Shown here: positions 3,387-36,894 of the stretch, one piece after another
How the letters are laid out: every line of letters begins with the position of its first letter
How positions within the stretch are numbered: position 1 is the stretch's first letter
Sequence record: PQ476010.1
Origin: Escherichia phage PhiNW-B1
DNA length: 40,478 bases
Direction: 5' to 3' (one strand)
Notes under the pieces: generated by a model
What the model saw: only the letters and a program-made list of their open reading frames with translations
What the model was told of the DNA's origin: nothing
Database searches by the model: none
Position numbers and translations under genes: made by a program

Positions 3387-3421
3387 CGCCGTAATGGTAA
3401 CAATCAACGAAAGGAGGTAGT

Positions 3422-3490
3422 ATGGACGAAGAGTCTTACGGTTCGTTCTCTGAAGAGGACTATAAGACGGAGTGGGAATACGCACATTGA
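3422..3490 (+). CDS. 22-codon acidic mini-ORF (MDEESYGSFSEEDYKTEWEYAH), existence uncertain
   Basis: strong RBS AAGGAGG 4 nt upstream of ATG; no homolog recalled. Confidence 0.2.
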   Translation: MDEESYGSFSEEDYKTEWEYAH

Positions 3491-3494
3491 AGAC

Positions 3495-3535
3495 CTAAGG
3501 TCAGTTCATAGCTGACGCTACTCTACTGACCTTAG
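3495..3535 (+). promoter_or_regulatory. hairpin (10-bp perfect stem CTAAGGTCAG/CTGACCTTAG) downstream of 19.5
   Basis: arms 3495-3504 and 3526-3535 are exact reverse complements, 21-nt loop. Confidence 0.4.
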
Positions 3536-3610
3536 CTACTGTAGTCAAGGACTTTAGGTAACACCTTAAGAGAAGCTCACTTAGTGTCATCCTACTTATT
3601 GGTCTATCCT

Positions 3611-3650
3611 AGTGTCGCCTGACCTACGGTCCTTGACCTACAGTGGCTGT
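3611..3650 (+). repeat. short-repeat array (3 copies of GRCCTACRGT) on the right side of the terminal repeat (SRR-like)
   Basis: GACCTACGGT 3611-3620, GACCTACAGT 3625-3634, GGCCTACAGT 3641-3650. Confidence 0.8.
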
Positions 3651-3698
3651 GGCCTACAGTAGTGACGATGAGTTTTGGACCAAAAGTTTGAGACCACA

Positions 3699-3915
3699 TC
3701 TCACAGTTCAAGAACCTCAAGTCTCCCCATAGGCCCTCTTTAAGTCCAGACCAAATGCCCTACCAGTTACTGCTCCTTGCAGTCACAGCCAGTCTATCAT
3801 AAGGTTGGACCGATGGTCAAGACGTTAGGTCGACGATAGGTCTAGGCTATGGCTTAGGGAAGGACGATAGGTGGTGACTATTGGTCTGTCTTTGAGTCTC
3901 TATCTGTATCAGACC
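3699..3915 (+). repeat. putative terminal-repeat segment at the concatemer junction (single copy here); boundaries approximate
   Basis: starts TCTCACAGT...TCTCCCCATAGG resembling the T7 left end TCTCACAGTG...TTCCCCCATAGG by recall; flanked by short-repeat arrays on both sides; contains TATCTGTAT near its end. Confidence 0.45.
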
Positions 3916-3920
3916 ATAAG

Positions 3921-4010
3921 TCACTAACCTACAGTCTCACTAACCTACAGTCTCACTAACCTACAGTCTCAATCATAAGACACCAACACCTACAGTCATA
4001 GACCTACAGT
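3921..4010 (+). repeat. short-repeat array on the left side (3 perfect tandem 16-mers TCACTAACCTACAGTC, then 2 more ACCTACAGT copies; SRL-like)
   Basis: units 3921-3936, 3937-3952, 3953-3968; ACCTACAGT again at 3988-3996 and 4002-4010. Confidence 0.9.
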
Positions 4011-4121
4011 TACTAGACACAAAGCTATAGACTTAAGGTCAAAGACATGTTAGTCAAAGACTATATCCTATTACACCATGGGGCCGACGATAGCTTAATC
4101 AATATTATTTCAAATTACCTA

Positions 4122-4150
4122 TTGACTATAGGTCTAGACTATGGCTTAAT
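4122..4150 (+). promoter_or_regulatory. candidate host sigma70 early promoter (TTGACT-17-CTTAAT)
   Basis: -35 TTGACT 4122-4127 (identical to T7 A1 -35), weak -10; inference. Confidence 0.3.
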
Positions 4151-4262
4151 AGCTTCCGTCAACACGACACGGCAACAACCGGATAGTGAAGACGCCTGGT
4201 CATCCCGGTTAAGTAGACAGCCTGATAAGTCATACGAACAACAGGCAGATGACAGAAAGTAG

Positions 4263-4291
4263 TTGACAAGAAGTAAGACTTAAAGTAGTAT
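4263..4291 (+). promoter_or_regulatory. candidate host sigma70 early promoter (TTGACA-17-TAGTAT)
   Basis: consensus -35 TTGACA 4263-4268, 17-bp spacer, -10 TAGTAT 4286-4291; upstream of first early gene. Confidence 0.45.
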
Positions 4292-4418
4292 GTACCACAT
4301 CAACACGAAACAACGGTGAAGCCTAACACTGAAACAGGCTAGCACGGCGACGACAGCCAGTGCGAATGCTCTTTAACAATCTGGATAACTCTTAATGTGC
4401 GCCGATAGCGACTAACTA

Positions 4419-4450
4419 CAGGGCCTTTTAGTCTACATCTGAAGGCCCTG
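4419..4450 (+). promoter_or_regulatory. hairpin (9-bp perfect stem CAGGGCCTT/AAGGCCCTG), candidate RNase III site before first early gene (R0.3-like)
   Basis: arms 4419-4427 and 4442-4450; followed by ACTGATAGTCACTAAC, which recurs at 4768-4783. Confidence 0.4.
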
Positions 4451-4473
4451 ACTGATAGTCACTAACTTAACGG

Positions 4474-4728
4474 ATGGACACTATGAAACACTTAAGCACA
4501 ATCACTAATCGCAATGAAGTATTCGTGAACACTAAAGGTTATGCGTGGATTCAGCTTAAAGAGATGAGAGGAGCGCGTCACCGTGTGGTAGTTCGCAAGG
4601 TATCAAGCAAGCCGTTCAGCAACTACAGCGTAGATACTATGCGTATAGACAACGAGACTTACCTGATAGACTCGCAGATAACCGTGCGTCCTACAGCGGG
4701 CATCTCAGCTCCTTATTTCGCTAACTGA
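4474..4728 (+). CDS. hypothetical early protein (84 aa)
   Basis: ORF in early region upstream of ocr; no homolog recalled. Confidence 0.55.
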   Translation: MDTMKHLSTITNRNEVFVNTKGYAWIQLKEMRGARHRVVVRKVSSKPFSNYSVDTMRIDNETYLIDSQITVRPTAGISAPYFAN

Positions 4729-4745
4729 GAGTGATTAACTACAGG

Positions 4746-4783
4746 TCGTTAGACTGATAGCGGCCTGACTGATAGTCACTAAC
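4746..4783 (+). promoter_or_regulatory. second copy of early hairpin element (stem CAGGTCG/CGGCCTG plus ACTGATAGTCACTAAC)
   Basis: 7-bp stem with one G-U; shares 5' GA(C/T)TAACTACAGG and 3' CCTGACTGATAGTCACTAAC with element at 4410-4467. Confidence 0.35.
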
Positions 4784-4811
4784 ACATAATTAACTTTGAG
4801 AGGATATAACT

Positions 4812-5315
4812 ATGGAACGTAATGCTAACGCATACTATGAGCTGCTGGCTGCAACCGTTGAGGCATTTATCGAGCGTATTCAGTACGACCACCTGACTCA
4901 AGATGATGACTACAGCGATGCGCTGCATGAGGTCGTAGACGGTCAGGTTCCACACTATTACCACGAGATTTTTACGGTGATGGCTGCTGATGGTATAGAC
5001 CACGAGTTCGAAGACTCTGGGCTGATGCCTGAAACCAAGGACGTAACGCGTATACTACAAGCTCGCATCTATGAGGCGCTTTATAACGATGTGTCTAATA
5101 GCTTGGATGTAGTCTGGTTTGAGGCTGAAGAGGCAGACGAAGAGGATGAATATTGGGTAGTTGACGCTAAAACAGGCGCAATAATTGTGCAAGCTGTAGC
5201 TCTTGAGGTCGCTACTGCATGTGCCAAGGTCAACTATGCAATAGGTCGCCACCTGAAGGTGGAAGACATCAATGATAACGTAGTGTTCGACCCTGCGGCT
5301 GAGGACTGCGAGTGA
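4812..5315 (+). CDS. ocr: Ocr-like anti-restriction DNA mimic (T7 gp0.3 homolog) with about 54-aa C-terminal extension
   Basis: N-terminal ~113 aa align by recall to T7 Ocr ([35 protein letters not shown]); 167 aa versus 117 in T7. Confidence 0.85.
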
Positions 5316-5464
5316 TGGTAACTTATGGTCTCTGCCAGCACCACGTCGCCAACGCCCGGCTTATGGTCAAGACCGGGCGGTTAACCCATGATGAGACTAT
5401 GCGTCTCCTGAAGGTGGTCTACAAGCGCCGCAAGCGCATACACGACAGTTTGCACGCTGAGTGA
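5315..5464 (+). CDS. hypothetical small basic protein (49 aa)
   Basis: ATG overlaps ocr stop (TGATG); [49 protein letters not shown]; below track cutoff. Confidence 0.4.
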   Translation: MVTYGLCQHHVANARLMVKTGRLTHDETMRLLKVVYKRRKRIHDSLHAE

Positions 5465-5471
5465 TAAACGA

Positions 5472-5496
5472 GAGGTCACTACTGATAGGTGGCCTC
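5472..5496 (+). promoter_or_regulatory. hairpin GAGGTCAC / GTGGCCTC, member of the AGGTCA/TGGCCT hairpin family
   Basis: arms 5472-5479 and 5489-5496 pair with one G-U wobble. Confidence 0.35.
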
Positions 5497-5530
5497 AAAG
5501 ATTACCACTTACATTGATAGGAGAATTACT

Positions 5531-5698
5531 ATGAAATTTACAATCATCGCACTTTACGTAACCATTATTCTATCTTGGCTTACTGCGGTGCTCACTGATG
5601 GTAACGCATTACGACTGGGCTGGCTGGCAGTGGACATTATATTCTCTCCGGTAGGTGTCGTGCGCGGTATCTTGATGTGGATTGGACTGGCAGGATAA
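5531..5698 (+). CDS. small hydrophobic early protein (56 aa, predicted membrane)
   Basis: ATG 5531 preceded by AGGAGA 6 nt upstream; track ORF 5489 begins at a GTG without RBS. Confidence 0.5.
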   Translation: MKFTIIALYVTIILSWLTAVLTDGNALRLGWLAVDIIFSPVGVVRGILMWIGLAG

Positions 5699-5701
5699 AC
5701 T

Positions 5702-5899
5702 ATGAGTCTTGCACTATTGATAGCCATAGGCTATGGACTTATCGCCTACGTGCTGGTGAGAGACATCAACAAAGCGCGTAAAGTCTACAAATTCAACTAT
5801 GTACGTCTGGGCCGCTGGACTGTACGTCAACCTAACGGACGATTCATGCGCAACTTAGCGAACGTCTGGGATATAGCAACTATTGGGAGCAAACTGTAA
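5702..5899 (+). CDS. small early protein with N-terminal transmembrane helix (65 aa)
   Basis: MSLALLIAIGYGLIAYVLV hydrophobic N-terminus; tightly packed after previous gene. Confidence 0.5.
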   Translation: MSLALLIAIGYGLIAYVLVRDINKARKVYKFNYVRLGRWTVRQPNGRFMRNLANVWDIATIGSKL

Positions 5900-6159
5900 T
5901 GAAAACCGTATACATTAACAAACCATCTAGCCATAGCCGTGTAGAGCAAATAGAGCGTGACATGTTCTTACATCGCCGCATGAGGGCTGAGGGCCATAAG
6001 TACGAACTGATGAGTCTGGCGTTTGGTGGACGACCGATCACTGACGATGGTAAACTTTTAGTCTCAGGCTGGAAGGCGATAGACCAACGGTCAACCATCA
6101 AGCACACGACTCACGGTGACTTCAGCCATCTCCACGCTAACCCACTGATATGCAAGTGA
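5899..6159 (+). CDS. hypothetical early protein (86 aa)
   Basis: ATG overlaps previous stop (TAATG); no homolog recalled. Confidence 0.55.
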   Translation: MKTVYINKPSSHSRVEQIERDMFLHRRMRAEGHKYELMSLAFGGRPITDDGKLLVSGWKAIDQRSTIKHTTHGDFSHLHANPLICK

Positions 6160-6164
6160 TTATG

Positions 6165-6187
6165 ACTTAACTATCACTATAGGACTC
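6165..6187 (+). promoter_or_regulatory. phage RNAP promoter immediately upstream of the RNAP gene, +1 G at 6182
   Basis: ACTTAACTATCACTATAGGACTC matches the window consensus. Confidence 0.65.
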
Positions 6188-6256
6188 AAGGTCTAAGACT
6201 CCAAGTGAAAGACCAAAGAGACTTTAAGTGAAAGACTAATAACAAGGACTTTAAGT

Positions 6257-8938
6257 ATGAGCGTCATCTCTATTGACAAACACGACTTCTCTGATGTGTC
6301 GAACGCCATTGAGCCGTTTAACCTGCTGGCTGACCACTACGGGCAAGACCTTGCAGTCAAACAGCTTCAGCTTGAGCATGAGGCCTACACTGAAGGTGAG
6401 CGACGTTTCATCAAGAACCTTGAGCGTCAGACTGAGCGCGGGGAACTGGCAGACAATCAGGTCGCCAAGCCTTTGATGCAGACTCTGGTTCCTAAGATTG
6501 CGCAAGCCGTCAAGGAGTGGCACGAAGGTCCAGACGGGAAGCTGTCAACCTCTCGTCCTAGCGTAGCGTTCACCATGTTGAGCACTGAAGAGAAGGCCGT
6601 CAAGGACCGCTCTCTTCGCATCTCCTGCGAGTCTGCTGCGGTTATCATACTGAAGGTCATCCTCTCCAAGCTGGTCAAGCCTGAAGGGATACCGATTACA
6701 CCGATGGCCTCCGCGATAGGTCGCACACTTGAGGACGAAATCCGCTTCGGTCGCATCCGTGACAAGGAGAAGGAGCACTTCAAGAAGGCGATAGCTGAGA
6801 ACTTGAACAAGCGAGCTGGGGCATCCTACAAGAAAGCCTACATGCAAGCGGTCGAGGCCTCCATGTTGGAGCAAGGACAACTGGAAGATGCGTGGGGAAC
6901 TTGGAGTCCGACCGAGGCTGTCCACGTTGGCATCAAGATGCTTGAGATTGTCATCCAGTCAACACAACTGGTCGAGCTTAAGCGGTACGGTGCTGGCAAT
7001 GCAGCGGCTGACGTAGAGATGGTCCACCTGTCAGACTTCTGGGTCAAGAAGATGGCACAACGCGGATTTAGCCTTGCGGGTATCGCCCCAGTCTACCAAC
7101 CTTGCGTCGTTCCACCTAAGCCGTGGACCGGTGTCGTAGGCGGTGGGTACTGGGCCAAAGGTCGCAGACCATTACCACTGATTCGCTTAGGGTCTAAGTC
7201 TGCGGTGGCACGTTACGAAGACGTGTATATGCCTGAAGTCTATGACGCTGTTAACATCATCCAGAATACACCTTGGAAAGTGAACAAGAAGGTTCTGGAC
7301 GTGGTGAACATGGTCGAGAAGTTGAACAACACGCCTATTGATGACATCCCTCAGATGGAGCCACTGAAGCCTGAAGAATATGCGGGTGAGACTGAAGAGG
7401 AACTCAAGGCGTGGAAGAAAGCGGCTGCTGGTATCTATCGCCGCGAGAAGGCCAGACAGTCACGCAGATTGTCACTGAGCTTTATCGTGAACCAAGCTAA
7501 CAAGTTCTCTCAGTTCAAGGCCATCTGGTTCCCGTACAACATGGACTGGCGCGGTAGAGTCTACGCTGTGCCGATGTTCAACCCTCAGGGTAACGACATG
7601 CAGAAGGGTCTCCTGACTCTGGCAGTCGGTAAGCCTATTGGTGCTGATGGTTTCAGATGGCTGAAGGTCCACGGTGCAAACTGTGCGGGTATTGATAAAG
7701 TAACCTTCGAGGAGCGCATCAAGTGGGTGGAAGATAACCACGACAACATCATGGCTACCGCTAAGGCACCGATGGACAGCATTGAGTGGTGGGGTAAGTT
7801 AGACTCTCCGTTCTGCTTCCTAGCGTTCTGCTTCGAGTATGCTGGCGTAATGCATCACGGATTGTCTTACTCCTGCTCGCTGCCGATAGCATTCGATGGG
7901 TCCTGCTCTGGGATTCAGCACTTTAGCGCGATGCTTCGTGATCACATCGGTGGACATGCAGTAAACCTGACGCCTTCCGGTAAGGTCCAAGACATCTACC
8001 GCATCGTGTCTGACCGCATTGAGGAAGAGCTTAAAGTCCTGCTGGTTAACGGCACGGACAACGAGATGGTAACTCACGAGGACAAGAAAACTGGTGAGAT
8101 TACCGAGCGTCTCAAGCTGGGGACACGAGAGCTGGCCCGTCAGTGGCTGACCTACGGTATGTCACGAAAGGTCACTAAGCGTTCGGTCATGACTCTGGCC
8201 TACGGGTCGAAAGAGTACGGCTTCGCAGACCAAGTTTACGAGGACATCGTGATGCCAGCGATTGACTCAGGGTCTGGCGCTATGTTCACTGAACCAAGCC
8301 AAGCATCTCGCTTCATGGCTAAGATGATTTGGGAAGCTGTGAGTGTGACCGTAGTTGCTGCGGTTGACGCGATGAAATGGCTTCAGGGTGCTGCCAAGCT
8401 GCTGGCGGCTGAAGTGAAGGACAAGAAGACGGGTGAAATCCTGAAGCCTTGCCTTCCGGTACACTGGGTCACACCTGATGGGTTCCCGGTCTGGCAGGAA
8501 TACCGCAAGAAGGATACCACTCGTCTGAATCTGATGTTCTTAGGGTCATTCAACCTTCAGCCTACCGTCAACAAAGGCACGAAGAAAGAGCTGGATAAAC
8601 ACAAGCAGGAGTCAGGCATTAGCCCGAACTTCGTCCACTCACAAGATGGTAGCCACCTGCGCAAGACTGTAGTCCACACGCATCGCAAGTATGGCGTGAT
8701 GTCATTCGCAGTGATTCATGATAGCTTCGGGACCATCCCGGCTGACGCTGAATATCTGTTCCGTGGTGTCCGTGAGACGATGGTCGAGACCTACCGCGAC
8801 AACGATGTGCTGCTTGACTTCTACGAGCAGTTTGAATACCAGCTTCACGAGAGCCAGCGCAATAAGTTGCCAGAGCTTCCGAAGAAAGGTAAACTGAATA
8901 TCGAAGACATCTTGTCTTCAGACTTTGCATTCGCTTAA
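6257..8938 (+). CDS. 1: single-subunit DNA-dependent RNA polymerase (T7 gp1 homolog)
   Basis: 893 aa; extensive identity by recall to T7 RNAP (AIWFPYNMDWRGRVYA, NPQGNDM.KGLLTLA, DGSCSGIQHFSAMLRD, HDSFGTIPADA, C-terminal FAFA). Confidence 0.98.
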   Translation: MSVISIDKHDFSDVSNAIEPFNLLADHYGQDLAVKQLQLEHEAYTEGERRFIKNLERQTERGELADNQVAKPLMQTLVPKIAQAVKEWHEGPDGKLSTSRPSVAFTMLSTEEKAVKDRSLRISCESAAVIILKVILSKLVKPEGIPITPMASAIGRTLEDEIRFGRIRDKEKEHFKKAIAENLNKRAGASYKKAYMQAVEASMLEQGQLEDAWGTWSPTEAVHVGIKMLEIVIQSTQLVELKRYGAGNAAADVEMVHLSDFWVKKMAQRGFSLAGIAPVYQPCVVPPKPWTGVVGGGYWAKGRRPLPLIRLGSKSAVARYEDVYMPEVYDAVNIIQNTPWKVNKKVLDVVNMVEKLNNTPIDDIPQMEPLKPEEYAGETEEELKAWKKAAAGIYRREKARQSRRLSLSFIVNQANKFSQFKAIWFPYNMDWRGRVYAVPMFNPQGNDMQKGLLTLAVGKPIGADGFRWLKVHGANCAGIDKVTFEERIKWVEDNHDNIMATAKAPMDSIEWWGKLDSPFCFLAFCFEYAGVMHHGLSYSCSLPIAFDGSCSGIQHFSAMLRDHIGGHAVNLTPSGKVQDIYRIVSDRIEEELKVLLVNGTDNEMVTHEDKKTGEITERLKLGTRELARQWLTYGMSRKVTKRSVMTLAYGSKEYGFADQVYEDIVMPAIDSGSGAMFTEPSQASRFMAKMIWEAVSVTVVAAVDAMKWLQGAAKLLAAEVKDKKTGEILKPCLPVHWVTPDGFPVWQEYRKKDTTRLNLMFLGSFNLQPTVNKGTKKELDKHKQESGISPNFVHSQDGSHLRKTVVHTHRKYGVMSFAVIHDSFGTIPADAEYLFRGVRETMVETYRDNDVLLDFYEQFEYQLHESQRNKLPELPKKGKLNIEDILSSDFAFA

Positions 8939-9242: not shown

Positions 9243-9265
9243 CCTAAACTATCACTATAGGATTA
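9243..9265 (+). promoter_or_regulatory. phage RNAP promoter (phi1.1-like), +1 G at 9260
   Basis: CCTAAACTATCACTATAGGATTA. Confidence 0.75.
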
Positions 9266-9307
9266 GACTCAAGGTCATGACTCAAAGTCGTGGCCTTCAT
9301 GATTAAC
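9264..9307 (+). promoter_or_regulatory. conserved hairpin element (AAGGTCA / TGGCCTT), candidate RNase III site R1.1-like
   Basis: arms 9271-9277 and 9291-9297; flanks TAGACTCAAGGTCAT ... GTGGCCTTCATGATTAAC shared with copies at 268 and 16633. Confidence 0.4.
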
Positions 9308-9338
9308 CCTAAATAAACACTACTGGAGATTTAACCGT

Positions 9339-13776: not shown

Positions 13777-14224
13777 GGTACAGTTCAACCCACGGTCCCG
13801 GACTGACGCTATCTTCGTTCACTGTTCGGCTACCAAGCCAGAGATGGACATCGGGGTAGAGACCATCCGTATGTGGCACAAGCAGCAAGGCTGGCTGGAC
13901 GTAGGCTACCACTTTATCATCAAGCGCGATGGTACTGTGGAAGAGGGTCGCCCGGTAAACGTCGTAGGGTCACACGTTAAGGACTGGAACTCACGGTCTG
14001 TAGGCGTCTGCCTTGTAGGTGGAATTGACGCTAAGGGCAAGTTTGAAGCTAACTTCACTCCGGACCAGATGAACTCCCTACGCAACAAGCTGGCTGACCT
14101 GAAGTCCCTGTATCCTCAGGCAGAAATCAAAGCACATCATGATGTAGCACCAAAGGCGTGTCCAAGTTTCGACTTACAGCGCTGGCTGTCTACTAATGAG
14201 CTGGTCACTTCCGACCACGGTTAA
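13766..14224 (+). CDS. 3.5: N-acetylmuramoyl-L-alanine amidase / T7 lysozyme homolog (gp3.5)
   Basis: VQF..R.RTDAIFVHCSATKP...WLDVGYHFIIKRDGTVE.GR....GSH.K..N..S.GVCLVGGID.KGKF.ANFTP.QM.SLR...HH.VAPKACPSFDL.RW...ELVTSD.G. Confidence 0.95.
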   Translation: MVSKVQFNPRSRTDAIFVHCSATKPEMDIGVETIRMWHKQQGWLDVGYHFIIKRDGTVEEGRPVNVVGSHVKDWNSRSVGVCLVGGIDAKGKFEANFTPDQMNSLRNKLADLKSLYPQAEIKAHHDVAPKACPSFDLQRWLSTNELVTSDHG

Positions 14225-16465: not shown

Positions 16466-16630
16466 GTGTTAAAGAAACTTAAAGCTCGATACCACATGTT
16501 CATGTACAAATGGTGGAGCGATGAAGCAACCTGCCTGTCGAACATTCTGGGAGACCAGCGGTTCAACTCTGAGGCATGGAAGAAAGCTAACCGGAAGTTC
16601 ATGTATCACTTCTTGCGTACAGACTTCTAG
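16466..16630 (+). CDS. hypothetical small protein (54 aa, GTG start)
   Basis: GGAGG 7 nt upstream of GTG 16466; VLKKLKARYHMFMYKWWSDEATC... Confidence 0.4.
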   Translation: MLKKLKARYHMFMYKWWSDEATCLSNILGDQRFNSEAWKKANRKFMYHFLRTDF

Positions 16631-16632
16631 GT

Positions 16633-16673
16633 CTAGACTCAAGGTCATTCATAGCGAGTGGCCTTTATGATTA
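16633..16673 (+). promoter_or_regulatory. conserved hairpin element (AAGGTCA / TGGCCTT) upstream of DNA polymerase gene
   Basis: arms 16641-16647 and 16659-16665; third copy of the TAGACTCAAGGTCAT...GTGGCCTTTATGATTAA element. Confidence 0.4.
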
Positions 16674-16693
16674 AACTAAAGCGAGGATTAACC

Positions 16694-18865
16694 ATGTTTG
16701 ACCTTAAGAGTATCTGGGGTTCTGACATCGAGACCAACGGTCTCCTTGATACAGTCTCCCAGTTTCACTGTGGGGTCCTGATTAACGCCGAGTCGAATGA
16801 GACCCTTAAGTATGGGGTAGCTCCGATGGTCGGTATCGTCGGCGGCTTCAAAGAGTATGTTCATAAAGTGGAAGAGATTGCCGCATCACCTGATGGTATG
16901 CTGGTATTCCATAACGGTATCAACTATGACGTCCCGGCTATAGACAAGCTGAAGCGTTTGTACTTTGGGAAACGCTTTAACTTCCAGAAACATAAGATGA
17001 TTGATACCTTGGTGCTGGGACGCTTGATGTATCCAAACATTAAGTTCTCAGACATGGGCGCGGTGAAAGCTGGTCGTCTGCCACCTAAGATGATGGGACG
17101 CCAGTCTCTTGAGGCTTGGGGCTATCGTCTCGGTGAGATGAAAGGTGAGTACAAACACGATTACGTTGCCAAGTGCAAGGCTGAAGGTATCGAATATAAG
17201 GCTGGGGACGAATGGTTGTTCCCGTCTCAGGAGATGCTGGACTATAACGTTCAAGACGTTGTGGTCACACTGGCGTTGTTCAAGAAGTTCCTGACTGACA
17301 AGTATTACTTCCAGTCTGAACAGTTCGCTTTCGACCAGATTTATGCGTTGCGTCTGGAACATGATGCTGCGTGGACCTGTGCGAAGATGGAGCGTAACGG
17401 CTATCCGATGAACACCGAGATGGTCGAAGGCTTATATCGTGAACTCACTGTCAAACGTGCAGAGTTGCTGGACAAGCTGCGTTCGACTTTCGGTAGCTGG
17501 TACGCACCAAAGGGAGGCAAGGAGTTCTTCAGGCATCCACGGACAGGTAAGGACCTTCCGAAGTATCCGAGGGTCGTGTATCCTAAGGTCGGTGGCATCT
17601 TTAAGAAGCCGAAGAACAAAGCTCAACGCTTAGGTCTTGAACCTTGTGAACGCGATACGCGAGACACGATGGAAGGAGCACCATTCACGCCAATCACTTA
17701 CGTTGAGTTTAATCCGGGAAGCGGAGACCACTTAGCGAAAGTCCTGATGGAGCGTGGCTGGGAGCCTGTTGACTTCACTGACACCGGGAAACCTGTAGTC
17801 GATGACGAGACGTTGGAACACGTTAAGTTACCAGACGCAGAGGCTCAGGCTTGCGTAGAGCTGGTCCGTGAGTATCTGGTAGTCCAGAAGCGCATCGGAC
17901 AGGCTGCTGAAGGTAAGAACGCATGGTTGAAACTTGTAGGTCCAGACGGACGTATGCACGGTTCAATCAACCCTTGTGGAGCAGTAACCGGACGTGCGAC
18001 CCATAGTTCACCAAACATGGCTCAGGTCCCGGCTAACGGTGCTCCATACGGTGAGACTTGCCGTGGTGCTTTCGGTGCAGCGTGGAACAAGAAGGACGGT
18101 AAGCCAGACCCTTGGATTCAAGTAGGCGTGGATGCTTCAGGTCTTGAGCTTCGTTGTCTGGGGAACCGAGCGGCTCCGTTTGATGGTGGCGCCTATGCGA
18201 AGACTGTGGTCGAAGGTGACATCCACTGGGCCAACGCAGTCAACGCTGGGTTAGCACCTAACGTCCCACGCAATAAGTCCAGCCACGACCATGATGCTTT
18301 CCGTAACAACGCTAAGACGTTCATCTATGCGTTCCTATATGGTGCAGGGGCCGCGAAGATTGGACTGATAGTTGGCGGTGGTAAGAAGGAAGGTTCAGCT
18401 CTCATGAAGAAATTCATTGAGGGTACACCAGCCATTAAGGACCTCAGGGAAGCTGTCAGTAATACGTTAATCTCGGACTCTAAGTGGGTAGACGGTGAGA
18501 ACATCGTGAAGTGGAAACGCCGCTGGCTGAAGGGTCTGGATGGTCGTCGCATTCACATCCGGTCCCCGCACTCAGCACTTAACGCCCTACTTCAGGGTGA
18601 CGGTGCGGTGGTCTGTAAGCACTGGATAGTCGAGACCGAGCGTATGCTTGAAGAAGCTGGCTATGTCCACGGCTGGGAAGGTGACTTTGCGTACATGGCT
18701 TGGGTTCACGATGAGCTGCAAATTGCGTGTCGTACTCAGGAGATTGCCGAAGAAGTCGTCAAGATTGCTCAACTTGCTATGCGTAAGGTGGGCGAGTTCT
18801 ATAACTTTAAATGCGTCCTTGACACCGAAGGGAAGATTGGACCAACGTGGAAGGAGTGCCATTGA
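16694..18865 (+). CDS. 5: DNA polymerase (T7 gp5 homolog, family A)
   Basis: SDIETN.LL..V.QFHCGV, GSWY.PKGG.E.F.HPRTGK.LPKYPR, NAKTFIYAFLYGAG, YMAWVHDELQ; start at ATG 16694 (RBS GAGGA) since track GTG start lies inside the hairpin. Confidence 0.97.
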   Translation: MFDLKSIWGSDIETNGLLDTVSQFHCGVLINAESNETLKYGVAPMVGIVGGFKEYVHKVEEIAASPDGMLVFHNGINYDVPAIDKLKRLYFGKRFNFQKHKMIDTLVLGRLMYPNIKFSDMGAVKAGRLPPKMMGRQSLEAWGYRLGEMKGEYKHDYVAKCKAEGIEYKAGDEWLFPSQEMLDYNVQDVVVTLALFKKFLTDKYYFQSEQFAFDQIYALRLEHDAAWTCAKMERNGYPMNTEMVEGLYRELTVKRAELLDKLRSTFGSWYAPKGGKEFFRHPRTGKDLPKYPRVVYPKVGGIFKKPKNKAQRLGLEPCERDTRDTMEGAPFTPITYVEFNPGSGDHLAKVLMERGWEPVDFTDTGKPVVDDETLEHVKLPDAEAQACVELVREYLVVQKRIGQAAEGKNAWLKLVGPDGRMHGSINPCGAVTGRATHSSPNMAQVPANGAPYGETCRGAFGAAWNKKDGKPDPWIQVGVDASGLELRCLGNRAAPFDGGAYAKTVVEGDIHWANAVNAGLAPNVPRNKSSHDHDAFRNNAKTFIYAFLYGAGAAKIGLIVGGGKKEGSALMKKFIEGTPAIKDLREAVSNTLISDSKWVDGENIVKWKRRWLKGLDGRRIHIRSPHSALNALLQGDGAVVCKHWIVETERMLEEAGYVHGWEGDFAYMAWVHDELQIACRTQEIAEEVVKIAQLAMRKVGEFYNFKCVLDTEGKIGPTWKECH

Positions 18866-23886: not shown

Positions 23887-24768
23887 ATGTCTCAATCAGT
23901 TTATGCCGAGTTCGGCGTTAGCTCTAATGCAATCACTGGTTCCGTTGAGGACCTGAACGAACACCAGAAGTCTATGCTTGAACAGGACGTAGCTGTTCGT
24001 GATGGCGATGACGCTATTACCTTCAAGCAACTGGAAGCCGAAAACGAAGAGGCGACCGAAGAAGACGAGAACGTCGAAGAGGCTGAAGGTGAAGACCACG
24101 AGTCCGATGACGAAGAGTCTGAGACAGATGGTGAGCAGCCTGAGTTCATTGAACTGGGTGATGCACCTAAAGAGCTGACCGAAAGTGTCACCGCTCTGGA
24201 TGAAAACGAAGCTGCATTTGACGACATGGTGTCTTCTGCTGTAGAAGCCGGCAAGGTCACTGCTGATGAAATTACCGCTATCAAGGCTGAATACGCCAAG
24301 GACGGTAAGCTGTCTGACGCATCCTACGCTAAGTTGCAGGAAGCAGGTTACACCAAGCGCTTCGTAGATTCGTTTGTCCGTGGTCAGGAAGCTCTGGCTG
24401 AACAGTATGCTGCTGGTGTGGTTCGCTACGCTGGTGGTGCTGAACAGTTTAATCGCATCCTGTCACACCTTGAGTCAAACGACCCATCAACTCGTGAAGC
24501 ACTGGAAGCTGCTATCGTTCGCAAGGACATTGCTACTACCAAAGCTCTGCTGAATCTGGCTGGCAAGACTCTGGGTAAAGCTGTGGGTGTTAAACCACAG
24601 CGTACCATCACCACTCAGGCTAAACCTGTGGTAGCACCTAAGGCTCCTCAGACAGAAGCATTCAGCTCAAAGTCTGACATGATTAAGGCTATGAGTGACC
24701 CGCGATACCTGCGTGACGCTAAATACACGATGGAAGTTCGCGCTAAGGTAGCTGCCTCAAGCCTGTAG
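23887..24768 (+). CDS. 9: capsid assembly scaffolding protein (T7 gp9 homolog)
   Basis: VYA.FGV.S....GSVE, acidic middle, GYTK.F.DS..RGQEAL.EQY, MIKAMSDPRY; start at ATG 23887 with AAGGAG upstream (track start 23812 lacks RBS). Confidence 0.9.
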   Translation: MSQSVYAEFGVSSNAITGSVEDLNEHQKSMLEQDVAVRDGDDAITFKQLEAENEEATEEDENVEEAEGEDHESDDEESETDGEQPEFIELGDAPKELTESVTALDENEAAFDDMVSSAVEAGKVTADEITAIKAEYAKDGKLSDASYAKLQEAGYTKRFVDSFVRGQEALAEQYAAGVVRYAGGAEQFNRILSHLESNDPSTREALEAAIVRKDIATTKALLNLAGKTLGKAVGVKPQRTITTQAKPVVAPKAPQTEAFSSKSDMIKAMSDPRYLRDAKYTMEVRAKVAASSL

Positions 24769-24769
24769 G

Positions 24770-24792
24770 ACTAAACTATCACTATAGGGATA
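24770..24792 (+). promoter_or_regulatory. phage RNAP promoter (phi10-like), +1 G at 24787
   Basis: ACTAAACTATCACTATAGGGATA; about 100 nt upstream of capsid gene. Confidence 0.8.
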
Positions 24793-36000: not shown

Positions 36001-36894
36001 TTCGATGACCGCTGGCTTAAGACCGCTGGTATCTCTGACGAGCAGTGGAAGGGCATTAAGTCCCTCATCCGTGAGTCAGTGACTCGTGGTCCAGACGGGA
36101 AGTACACCATTAAGGATAAGAAGGCGTTCAGTCAGGACCCAAGGGCTATGGACCTGTGGCGTATGGGTGATACCATCGCTGACGAAACGTTACTACGTCC
36201 TCATAAGCTGTCCAACATGGACGCAAAGGCTTATGGTCCTCTCGCTAAGACTGTCCTTCAGTTTAAGAACTTCGTCATCAAGTCCATCAATGGACGTACC
36301 ATGCGAACCTTCTATAACGCCACGAAGAACAACCGAGCGATGGACGCTGCCCTGTCCACTGTGATCTCTATGGGTCTTGCTGGTATCTACTACATGGCTC
36401 AGGCTCATGTCAAGGCTTACGCTATGCAGGATGGTCGAGACCGTGACTACCTCAAGCAAGCTCTAGACCCGACGATGATTGGATATGCAGCTCTATCGCG
36501 TAGTTCACACCTTGGTGGACCACTTGGGGTAGCTAACATTCTGGGTGGCATCGCTGGGTATGAGGACACTAAGATGCTCCGTTCGTCTATCCTACCTCGT
36601 TCGCCCACAGAGAAGCCTGAACGTGCAATCGCGTATGGTGCAGCTACAAGTGACCCTGTGATGAATGTTGTTGGTAACTTCTTGGAGCAGGTTCCAGCTT
36701 TCGGATATGCTGCTAACGTTGGTGCTTCGGCTTATAACTTGGCTGGCTACCTGAAGGCCGACACTCGGGTAAACGAGCGAGACTACATGACCGGGATGTA
36801 TAACACCTTCCGTGAACTGGTTCCGAACGACCCGATTACTCAGAAGTTGCTACTGGGAACGTTTGAGGAGCAAGGTATCCACATCAAGGACTAA
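32998..36894 (+). CDS. 16: internal virion protein D (T7 gp16 homolog) with divergent N-terminal domain
   Basis: 1298 aa (T7 1318); from about residue 200 onward co-linear with T7 gp16 by recall (TWFGF..AAEAE, RWN.H.WT.EEL, PVDPL.YVP, LVRSPTGMQSGASGK, NDKAYGISH, NGDIAIM); first ~130 aa differ. Confidence 0.95.
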   Translation: MATRGVRNANPGNIRKSKDQWEGAVGDDGAFVIFDSPESGVRALAKNLQSYGRQGYDSIEKIINRWAPPNENDTQSYIDSVVAATGIPATQSIDLSNPDVLASLSEAIGYHETGSRYDPEVYKTGVSRALSGAGGITPKTSPVSANVFDALTEGLKSKPKVALGENLPGVTGMNIEGQAPEAPNESFGEMFYKSTGETLDQRADRSTWFGFGGAAEAEVKNSMVGVAIRAGQTEDSLDVIGDVFNPTRWNNHKWTREELDQIRNAGVLPQYYGVITGGSPQNLTELINLALENQKLDQEKAKAGTGAQLAAGVIGAGVDPLTYVPIAGQVGKGGKLINKMFTVAAQSGALAGASEIARTSVAGGDAHVAEAIMGGALFGGGMTAIGDAIGKALGKSTNEFAGPATRLEARETARNVDGQDLSRMPIREGEETFRHQGVKFADVPNEPGSVRLEDGSILIGENPLNPKTRQVFDEVIEPERAAAGVNLGGLTEIGLKLLRSENPEIRGVAADLVRSPTGMQSGASGKIGTTASDVFERLRAVDHRFYNDIDDAVTEALKDPYFQTAFWRDSGAFRQDIYQRVSMAIEDGSGNLKAELTPGELKVYDLLKNQFDAKREMMENPAMFGRPDAQSIFPGSRFKGTYVPHVYSNQMKELYIKELGSPEALQEAIKKSWLTSYASRPEVKKRVDEALLEADPTLTPEGLAAAVDKYANDKAYGISHTEQFERSSVMEENINGLVGLENNSFLEARNLFDSDMSIVLPNGQTFSVNNLREWDMDKIVPAYNRRVNGDIAIMAGTGKTTKDMKDLVETMMNKAGDDGKLKGEVSTLRDTLKILTGRARRDGADDAAFATVMRTMTDLSFFAKNAYMGVQNLTEIGGMLARGNVRAMLHGVPIFRDLAFRNKKVGASEIKDLHNVIFGKELDDSIRPSKQDVIDRLRSYSDLGRGTATALGTAKYYTGELAVRSPFTKVLNGTTNYLLDAGRQGFLSDIVEHSLTGSKRKFDDRWLKTAGISDEQWKGIKSLIRESVTRGPDGKYTIKDKKAFSQDPRAMDLWRMGDTIADETLLRPHKLSNMDAKAYGPLAKTVLQFKNFVIKSINGRTMRTFYNATKNNRAMDAALSTVISMGLAGIYYMAQAHVKAYAMQDGRDRDYLKQALDPTMIGYAALSRSSHLGGPLGVANILGGIAGYEDTKMLRSSILPRSPTEKPERAIAYGAATSDPVMNVVGNFLEQVPAFGYAANVGASAYNLAGYLKADTRVNERDYMTGMYNTFRELVPNDPITQKLLLGTFEEQGIHIKD

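Follow-up and report, generated by a model that had tools for sequence, protein, structure and literature searches.

Among the described systems, the early transcript of bacteriophage T7 is the closest to the locus considered here. Its early RNase III sites R0.3 and R0.5 were reportedly defined by Dunn and Studier in 1983, and R1.1 is said to have served as the model substrate of the Nicholson laboratory. The polycistronic RNAs of T7 are processed at ten RNase III sites (PMC6938266), with internal loops limiting the E. coli enzyme to one cut, which leaves a protective hairpin at the 3' end of the product (PMC1540722). T7 also grows where the host has no RNase III (PMC6938266), and any benefit of the processing would thus be a quantitative one. 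For K1F, or for any other Kayfunavirus, neither RNase III cleavage data nor RNase III sites were found in the literature searched.

The stretch of DNA analysed here (the window: 40,478 nucleotides of Escherichia phage PhiNW-B1, record PQ476010.1) is, as judged from its sequence, a Kayfunavirus genome, namely a K1F-like relative of T7 in the subfamily Studiervirinae, the region 4000-5400 being 99.7% identical to Escherichia phage vB_EcoP_LNA3 and 94-96% identical to many Kayfunavirus genomes. It holds the whole genome in a circularly permuted form, with late genes followed by the genome-end repeats and then by the early region. A 128-aa ORF at 810-1196, located between ORFs positioned as T7 gene 18.5 and the large terminase, has a translation that looks HNH-endonuclease-like by eye and may be a homing endonuclease insertion. 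Near the genome end (3921-3971) a 16-nt unit, TCACTAACCTACAGTC, is present in three exact tandem copies, and its CACTAAC and CTACAG motifs recur in the sequence flanking the RNase III-type sites.

Two host-type promoters are found on the + strand of the early region. The T7 A1-like one (sigma-70; 4122-4150; TTGACT, 17 nt, CTTAAT) was identified by local alignment to the T7 A1 region, and has a weak -10 hexamer and no entry in the list of the consensus promoter scan. The T7 A3-like one (4263-4291; TTGACA, 17 nt, TAGTAT) is the top match of the region in that scan, with 10 of 12 positions, and can be aligned with T7 A3 over a stretch that takes in the start region, GTACCACAT. A 71-aa ORF at 4047-4262 (phrog_30192), annotated as gp0.1 in K1F and LM33_P1, covers the A1-like promoter and stops at the -35 element of the A3-like one; the early promoters would not give a transcript of the whole ORF, which may be an annotation artefact. 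Downstream, the 84-aa + strand ORF at 4474-4728, which is present in the ORF list as the preliminary description had it, is gene 0.2, and it precedes an ocr-like anti-restriction gene of 167 aa (4812-5315, + strand; Pfam PF08684, E 3.6e-30; phrog_2568). The Pfam domain covers residues 8-94 only of the latter protein, and many relatives match just its first 103-110 residues, so that its C-terminal portion is apparently variable. A small + strand gene (5315-5464; phrog_5058, annotated as gp0.35 in K1F) overlaps the ocr stop codon, with which gene it would share a transcript, and is placed like T7 0.4 and K1F 0.35.

Gene 0.2 is flanked by two related hairpin elements, as had been reported. Their size and anatomy are different from those first given: in RNA folding each has a lower stem of 8 bp and an upper one of approximately 10 bp, separated by an asymmetric internal loop, and forms a two-stem hairpin of 56-65 nt instead of an element of roughly 50 nt. 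Site 1 (4406-4470, + strand; -25.3 kcal/mol, z -5.6; 61.1 bits with the covariance model presented below) is the counterpart of T7 R0.3, with which it aligns; its upper stem is of 10-12 bp, and the perfect 9-bp stem claimed for it is found in the sequence (C4419-T4427/A4442-G4450). Site 2 (4729-4787, + strand; -23.3 kcal/mol, z -5.1; 73.2 bits) is T7 R0.5-like, begins immediately after the stop codon of gene 0.2 and ends 25 nt upstream of the ocr ATG. Its stem, previously given as 7 bp at 4746-4768, is actually formed by C4742-A4751 and T4758-G4767, with 10 pairs including 2 G.U. The energies of sites 1 and 2 hold for the folded stretches 4405-4466 and 4728-4783. The elements are not limited to a pair, since besides the two flanking the gene there are three copies elsewhere in the window and a third early one, site 3 (5459-5515, + strand; 56.4 bits; -19.7 kcal/mol, z -4.7), which has the same shape and is located 3' of the small gene downstream of ocr.

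The 16-mer ACTGATAGTCACTAAC is indeed identical in the two elements and is present in exactly two copies (4451-4466 and 4768-4783). Allowing for up to 3 mismatches, 4 matches are obtained versus 0.42 expected, a number reached in 0 of 100 shuffles, and the exact repeat is in fact the 20-mer CCTGACTGATAGTCACTAAC (4447-4466 and 4764-4783). Rather than being a separate tail that follows the stem, as initially thought, the 16-mer pairs back with the 5' flank to give the lower stem, and thus makes up the 3' side of the latter and of the internal loop. A second shared block lies on the 5' side of the stems, as ACTAACTACAGG and ATTAACTACAGG, i.e. (A/T)TAACTACAGG. The two strands of site 2 fold with different stability (-23.3 kcal/mol for the + strand versus -10.7 kcal/mol for the - strand), because the G.U pairs turn into C.A in the latter, and this asymmetry points to a function at the RNA level. 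In some relatives the first site (L008 821-908 and L017 716-803) contains an insertion of approximately 23 nt at the hairpin tip (CCGCGAGACGGGCTTGACTTGAGCGAC), which leaves the conserved lower part unchanged.

The window elements align with T7 R0.3, R0.5, R1, R1.1 and R1.3 in sequence and structure, and these T7 regions fold like them. The alignment shows invariant AGG...G.CCT columns and a frame common to the two phages, ACU..AGG(U/G)C ... G(G/C)CCU...UGAU..CAC, and RNAalifold returns 17 consensus pairs, among which 10 show compensatory changes. Like the window sites, R0.3 and R0.5 are two-stem hairpins with an asymmetric internal loop, placed between cistrons in the early transcript of the host polymerase and just 5' of the ocr ribosome-binding site. 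As to the layout, the window differs from T7 by one additional site and gene 0.2 between the promoters and ocr, and the site that follows ocr and the gene at the 0.4 position corresponds to T7 R0.5. In the hairpins themselves, the apical loop is longer in site 1 than in R0.3 and R0.5, the upper stem opens with a C-G pair in the window and in T7 R1 but with A-U in R0.3 and R0.5, and the letters of the internal loop are ACUA/ACU in the window versus ACUC/UAU in T7. As to the proximal and distal boxes, for which rules on inhibitory base pairs have been laid out (PMC1540722), the comparison covered the loop-adjacent pairs, CAGG/CCUG, which are the same as in T7 R1.

A covariance model (R1), built from the early elements of the window and the five T7 early sites, finds 6 strong sites in the window, 6 of 6 on the + strand, and half of them are outside the training set. 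One of these three (263-322; 55.0 bits, E 8e-10; fold z -4.4) is at the T7 R18.5 position, between genes positioned as T7 genes 18 and 18.5. Another (9258-9317; 42.0 bits, E 6e-7) is at the R1.1 position, 3' of the RNA polymerase gene, where it overlaps a copy of the phage promoter (9236-9261), as is also the case for phi1.1A and R1.1 in T7. The last (16630-16679; 41.1 bits, E 1e-6) is near the R4.7 position, with the primase/helicase gene on one side and the DNA polymerase gene on the other as placed by ORF context, and has a weak lower stem, with only the upper stem folding (z -1.3). When applied to T7, the model recovers three held-out sites (13854-13903, 18502-18580 and 36817-36872) at the positions of R4.7, R6.5 and R18.5, it gives no other match at E < 1, and it misses R3.8 and R13. 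A candidate site 3' of the promoter at 24763-24788 was dropped for want of support from the model. The 4227 Rfam models give no gathering-score match in the whole window and none at E <= 1 for 4300-5600, and K1F records carry no annotated feature at the R sites.

Conservation among relatives extends these findings. In 47 of their early regions the matches to R sites are all on the + strand (65 of 65), and the sites whose place was mapped are intercistronic. Compensatory changes on both sides are present in 11 of the 17 pairs; in the alignment of the relatives 96.7% of the pair cells are paired, as compared with 79.5% after shuffling and 21.6-48.1% when the partners are slid, a percentage inflated by having fitted the alignment to the model, which does not affect the slide control. 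Of 48 regions anchored on ocr (the 47 relatives and the window) 26, that is all those with a site detected at that place, have it ending 15-31 nt 5' of the ocr ATG. The early layout is not a one-to-one copy of that of T7, as no convincing site like T7 R1 is present before gene 1, where only a half motif, GACTCAAGGTC, was found at 6183-6193 with no stable fold (z 0.03). In this region (6161-6260) the phage promoter consensus recurs (TTAACTATCACTATAGG) immediately 5' of the RNA polymerase gene, and this copy is followed by GACTCAAGGTC and by two 21-nt tandem repeats (6196-6216 and 6219-6239), whereas in T7 no phage promoter is annotated before gene 1.

Stable, G+C-rich stems between genes could also be read as intrinsic terminators or attenuators, which would limit read-through by the host RNA polymerase between the early genes. 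Neither stem is followed by a T-run, the sequence that follows being ACTGATAG, and a terminator scan of 3400-6400 gave 0 sites, on which grounds this reading was rejected. It is also at odds with the read-through needed by the downstream early genes, that for the RNA polymerase included, and with the non-terminating nature of the homologous T7 sites, the early terminator TE of T7 being found after gene 1.3; a role in termination is therefore highly unlikely. No more credit can be given to the idea that ACTGATAGTCACTAAC and its flank are a promoter of the phage RNA polymerase, or the operator of some DNA-binding protein, with the hairpin as an incidental feature. It stems from the loose resemblance of GTCACTAAC to TCACTA, the core of the consensus CTAAACTATCACTATAGG found for the phage promoters of the window. 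These promoters form a family with no fewer than 11 copies, each of which has ATCACT(A/G)TAGG or ATCACCTTAGG, while the elements have neither the TAGG start nor the upstream AACTAT; 4451-4466 and 4768-4783 fall outside the CTAAACTATCACTATAGG family, and the phage promoter was rejected. Moreover, ACTGATAGTCACTAAC is base-paired within the element with a partner that co-varies. Mobile hairpin repeats of the REP or MITE type were likewise discarded, all copies in the window and in the relatives being on the + strand.

Homology in sequence and structure, position and covariation thus support the initial suggestion that the elements are RNase III-type sites like T7 R0.3 and R0.5. We estimate at about 0.85 the probability that the three sites at 4406-4470, 4729-4787 and 5459-5515 are signals for processing of the early polycistronic transcript by the host RNase III, a reading that draws on sequence comparison. 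In the proposed scheme, E. coli RNA polymerase would start at the A1-like and A3-like promoters (approx. 4122-4291) and run rightwards, and each element, once transcribed, would form a hairpin with the asymmetric internal loop breaking its roughly two helical turns. RNase III would cut once, as it does in T7, on the 3' side of this loop. The T7 cuts, whose coordinates (890, 1468, 3138 and 5887) were reportedly given by Dunn and Studier in 1983, share a single column of the alignment, CCUnnnU^(G/A). Placed by that column, the cuts in the window would occur after T4453 (CCCUGACU^GAU), T4770 and A5499. They would release a monocistronic gene 0.2 mRNA of 317 nt and an ocr + 0.35 mRNA of 729 nt, the latter closed by site 3, with short and defined 5' leaders of 29 nt (gene 0.2) and 41 nt (ocr). 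The upper hairpin would be kept at the 3' end of each mRNA, where it may shield it from 3' exonucleases. The cut positions and any effect on mRNA stability or translation are inferred.

With respect to the gene released by the first two cuts, the preliminary description could recall no homolog, which needs to be amended. The protein matches phrog_10124 (E 1.1e-38), belongs to the K1F gp0.2 family, present in 103 phage records, and is 93.8% identical to annotated K1F gp0.2 (YP_424910). As in the window, the K1F gene lies between the early promoters and ocr with the same two flanking sites; there is no difference of substance between the two, and the window copy is the ortholog of the K1F one. 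The analysis shows the gene to be truly coding. A start at ATG 4483 (4483-4728, + strand, 81 aa) is likelier than that at ATG 4474 (84 aa), because a Shine-Dalgarno-like ACGGATGG is found upstream of it, at 4470-4477, and most homologs are of 81 aa.

Homologs of gp0.2 span Przondovirus, Ermolevavirus phiKT, N4-like Gamaleyavirus and the 150-kb Phapecoctavirus myophages. Those of phage nepoznato (L068), phiKT (L070) and EC1-UPM (L071), with 48-73% identity, have small hypothetical genes as neighbours, the host genomes being those of a 150-kb myophage, an Ermolevavirus and N4-like phages. The presence of unrelated lineages among the 103 phage records indicates that gene 0.2 is a horizontally mobile accessory gene. 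R sites were looked for and none was found beside the homologs in Phapecoctavirus, Ermolevavirus and Gamaleyavirus. As they flank gp0.2 in T7-like phages only, the sites belong to the T7-like operon and not to gp0.2. With regard to function, Pfam, NCBIfam and the PDB sequence profile gave no match, and the only matches of a Foldseek search of viral models were early proteins, uncharacterised, from other podophages. The structure model predicts beta strand for the most part; gp0.2 is a small, largely beta-strand accessory protein, and probably a host-takeover or anti-defence factor, as suggested by ocr next door and by the spread over unrelated phages.

Comparison of the relatives between the first site and ocr reveals six arrangements, with single-gene cassettes that are present, absent or permuted; the phages named here are examples. 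Nothing separates the first R site from ocr in L006-L009, L012, L014 and L017 (R-ocr); gp0.2 is found in the window, K1F and LM33_P1 (R-0.2-R-ocr), a 58-aa gene in L010, L015 and GA2A (R-58 aa-R-ocr), and a 92-aa gene in TM1 (R-92 aa-R-ocr). Two genes are present in PM129, with gp0.2 followed by the 92-aa gene (R-0.2-R-92-R-ocr), and in L011, with the reverse order (R-92-R-0.2-R-ocr). In every arrangement the gene-specific sequence begins just 3' of ...GTCACTAAC and stops at (T/G)AGTGATTAAC. The cassette junctions are therefore located within the sites, which implies that the crossovers fall inside them. Chimeric sites, in which a type-1 hairpin carries a type-2 5' arm, are present in PM129 and L013. 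Furthermore, in the Teetrevirus phiYe-F10 a homolog of the 92-aa protein is found in another slot, downstream of ocr and between two sites; across genera the site 3' of the 92-aa gene is 87-89% identical and the protein only 55-61%. In this Yersinia phage (L072) the homolog, at 1578-1859, has no CDS in the public record, and its flanking R sites are at 1502-1555 and 1860-1917.

These data raise the question of whether the elements are mainly recombination junctions of the early cassettes, acting at the DNA level with RNA processing as a secondary feature. Like the boundary sequences of lambdoid phages, they would then be portable blocks of homology through which early accessory-gene cassettes could be inserted, deleted and reordered. 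The six arrangements, the bounding of gene-specific sequence by GTCACTAAC and (T/G)AGTGATTAAC, the chimeric sites and the better conservation of the site than of the 92-aa protein speak for such junctions. However, the helices are maintained through compensatory and G.U changes, which matter only in the + strand RNA, all copies have a single orientation, the same family is found at conserved, non-variable junctions (the R18.5, R1.1 and R4.7 positions), and the T7 homologs are proven RNase III substrates; by-product crossovers are, besides, expected in any conserved 55-nt block. A mainly DNA-level role is thus improbable, and can in any case hold alongside processing by RNase III.

On a more tentative note, and at rather less than even odds, the R sites may do two jobs, being at the same time RNA-processing signals and the junctions of an array of cassettes, loosely integron-like, at the genome's leading end. 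The cassette unit would consist of a leader, one accessory ORF and the 3' site. The near-identical sites of approximately 55 nt would provide homology for the phage's own recombination to insert, delete or permute units, which could be exchanged through them both within a genus and between genera, and a newly acquired gene might then be expressed immediately, from a discrete mRNA with a protected 3' end. The six arrangements, the chimeric sites and the companion site of the 92-aa gene are consistent with such a dual job, with no implication that it has been selected for. Phage accessory, or moron-like, cassettes have their own promoter and terminator; here it is an RNA-processing signal that bounds each cassette. 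As in the accessory regions studied by Silas et al., small, variable and horizontally exchanged genes cluster by ocr (bioRxiv 10.1101/2023.04.06.535777), and orf24, an accessory gene from an ocr-containing region, was found by these authors to trigger cell death in one E. coli strain. Those supplements of that work (10.1101/2023.04.06.535777) that were searched contain no peptide strings of gp0.2 or of the 92-aa or 58-aa protein.

Overall, the finding is in part an ordinary one, as the elements are close relatives of the T7 RNase III sites. The class of RNase III sites was already known, and so was gp0.2: the 84-aa ORF is no orphan, having been already catalogued in K1F. What is new is that the cassette junctions of the relatives fall inside R sites. 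Public Kayfunavirus records do not annotate the R sites, nor does Rfam have a family for them, and a covariance model like the present one could annotate them throughout Studiervirinae. If RNA-processing sites also mark gene swaps, R sites would be natural insulated slots for the insertion of genes into therapeutic phages, and would offer a simple route to candidate anti-defence genes in T7-like phages. As for this Kayfunavirus, signals that come from the T7 lineage probably divide its early operon into two messages, one for gene 0.2 and one for ocr + 0.35.
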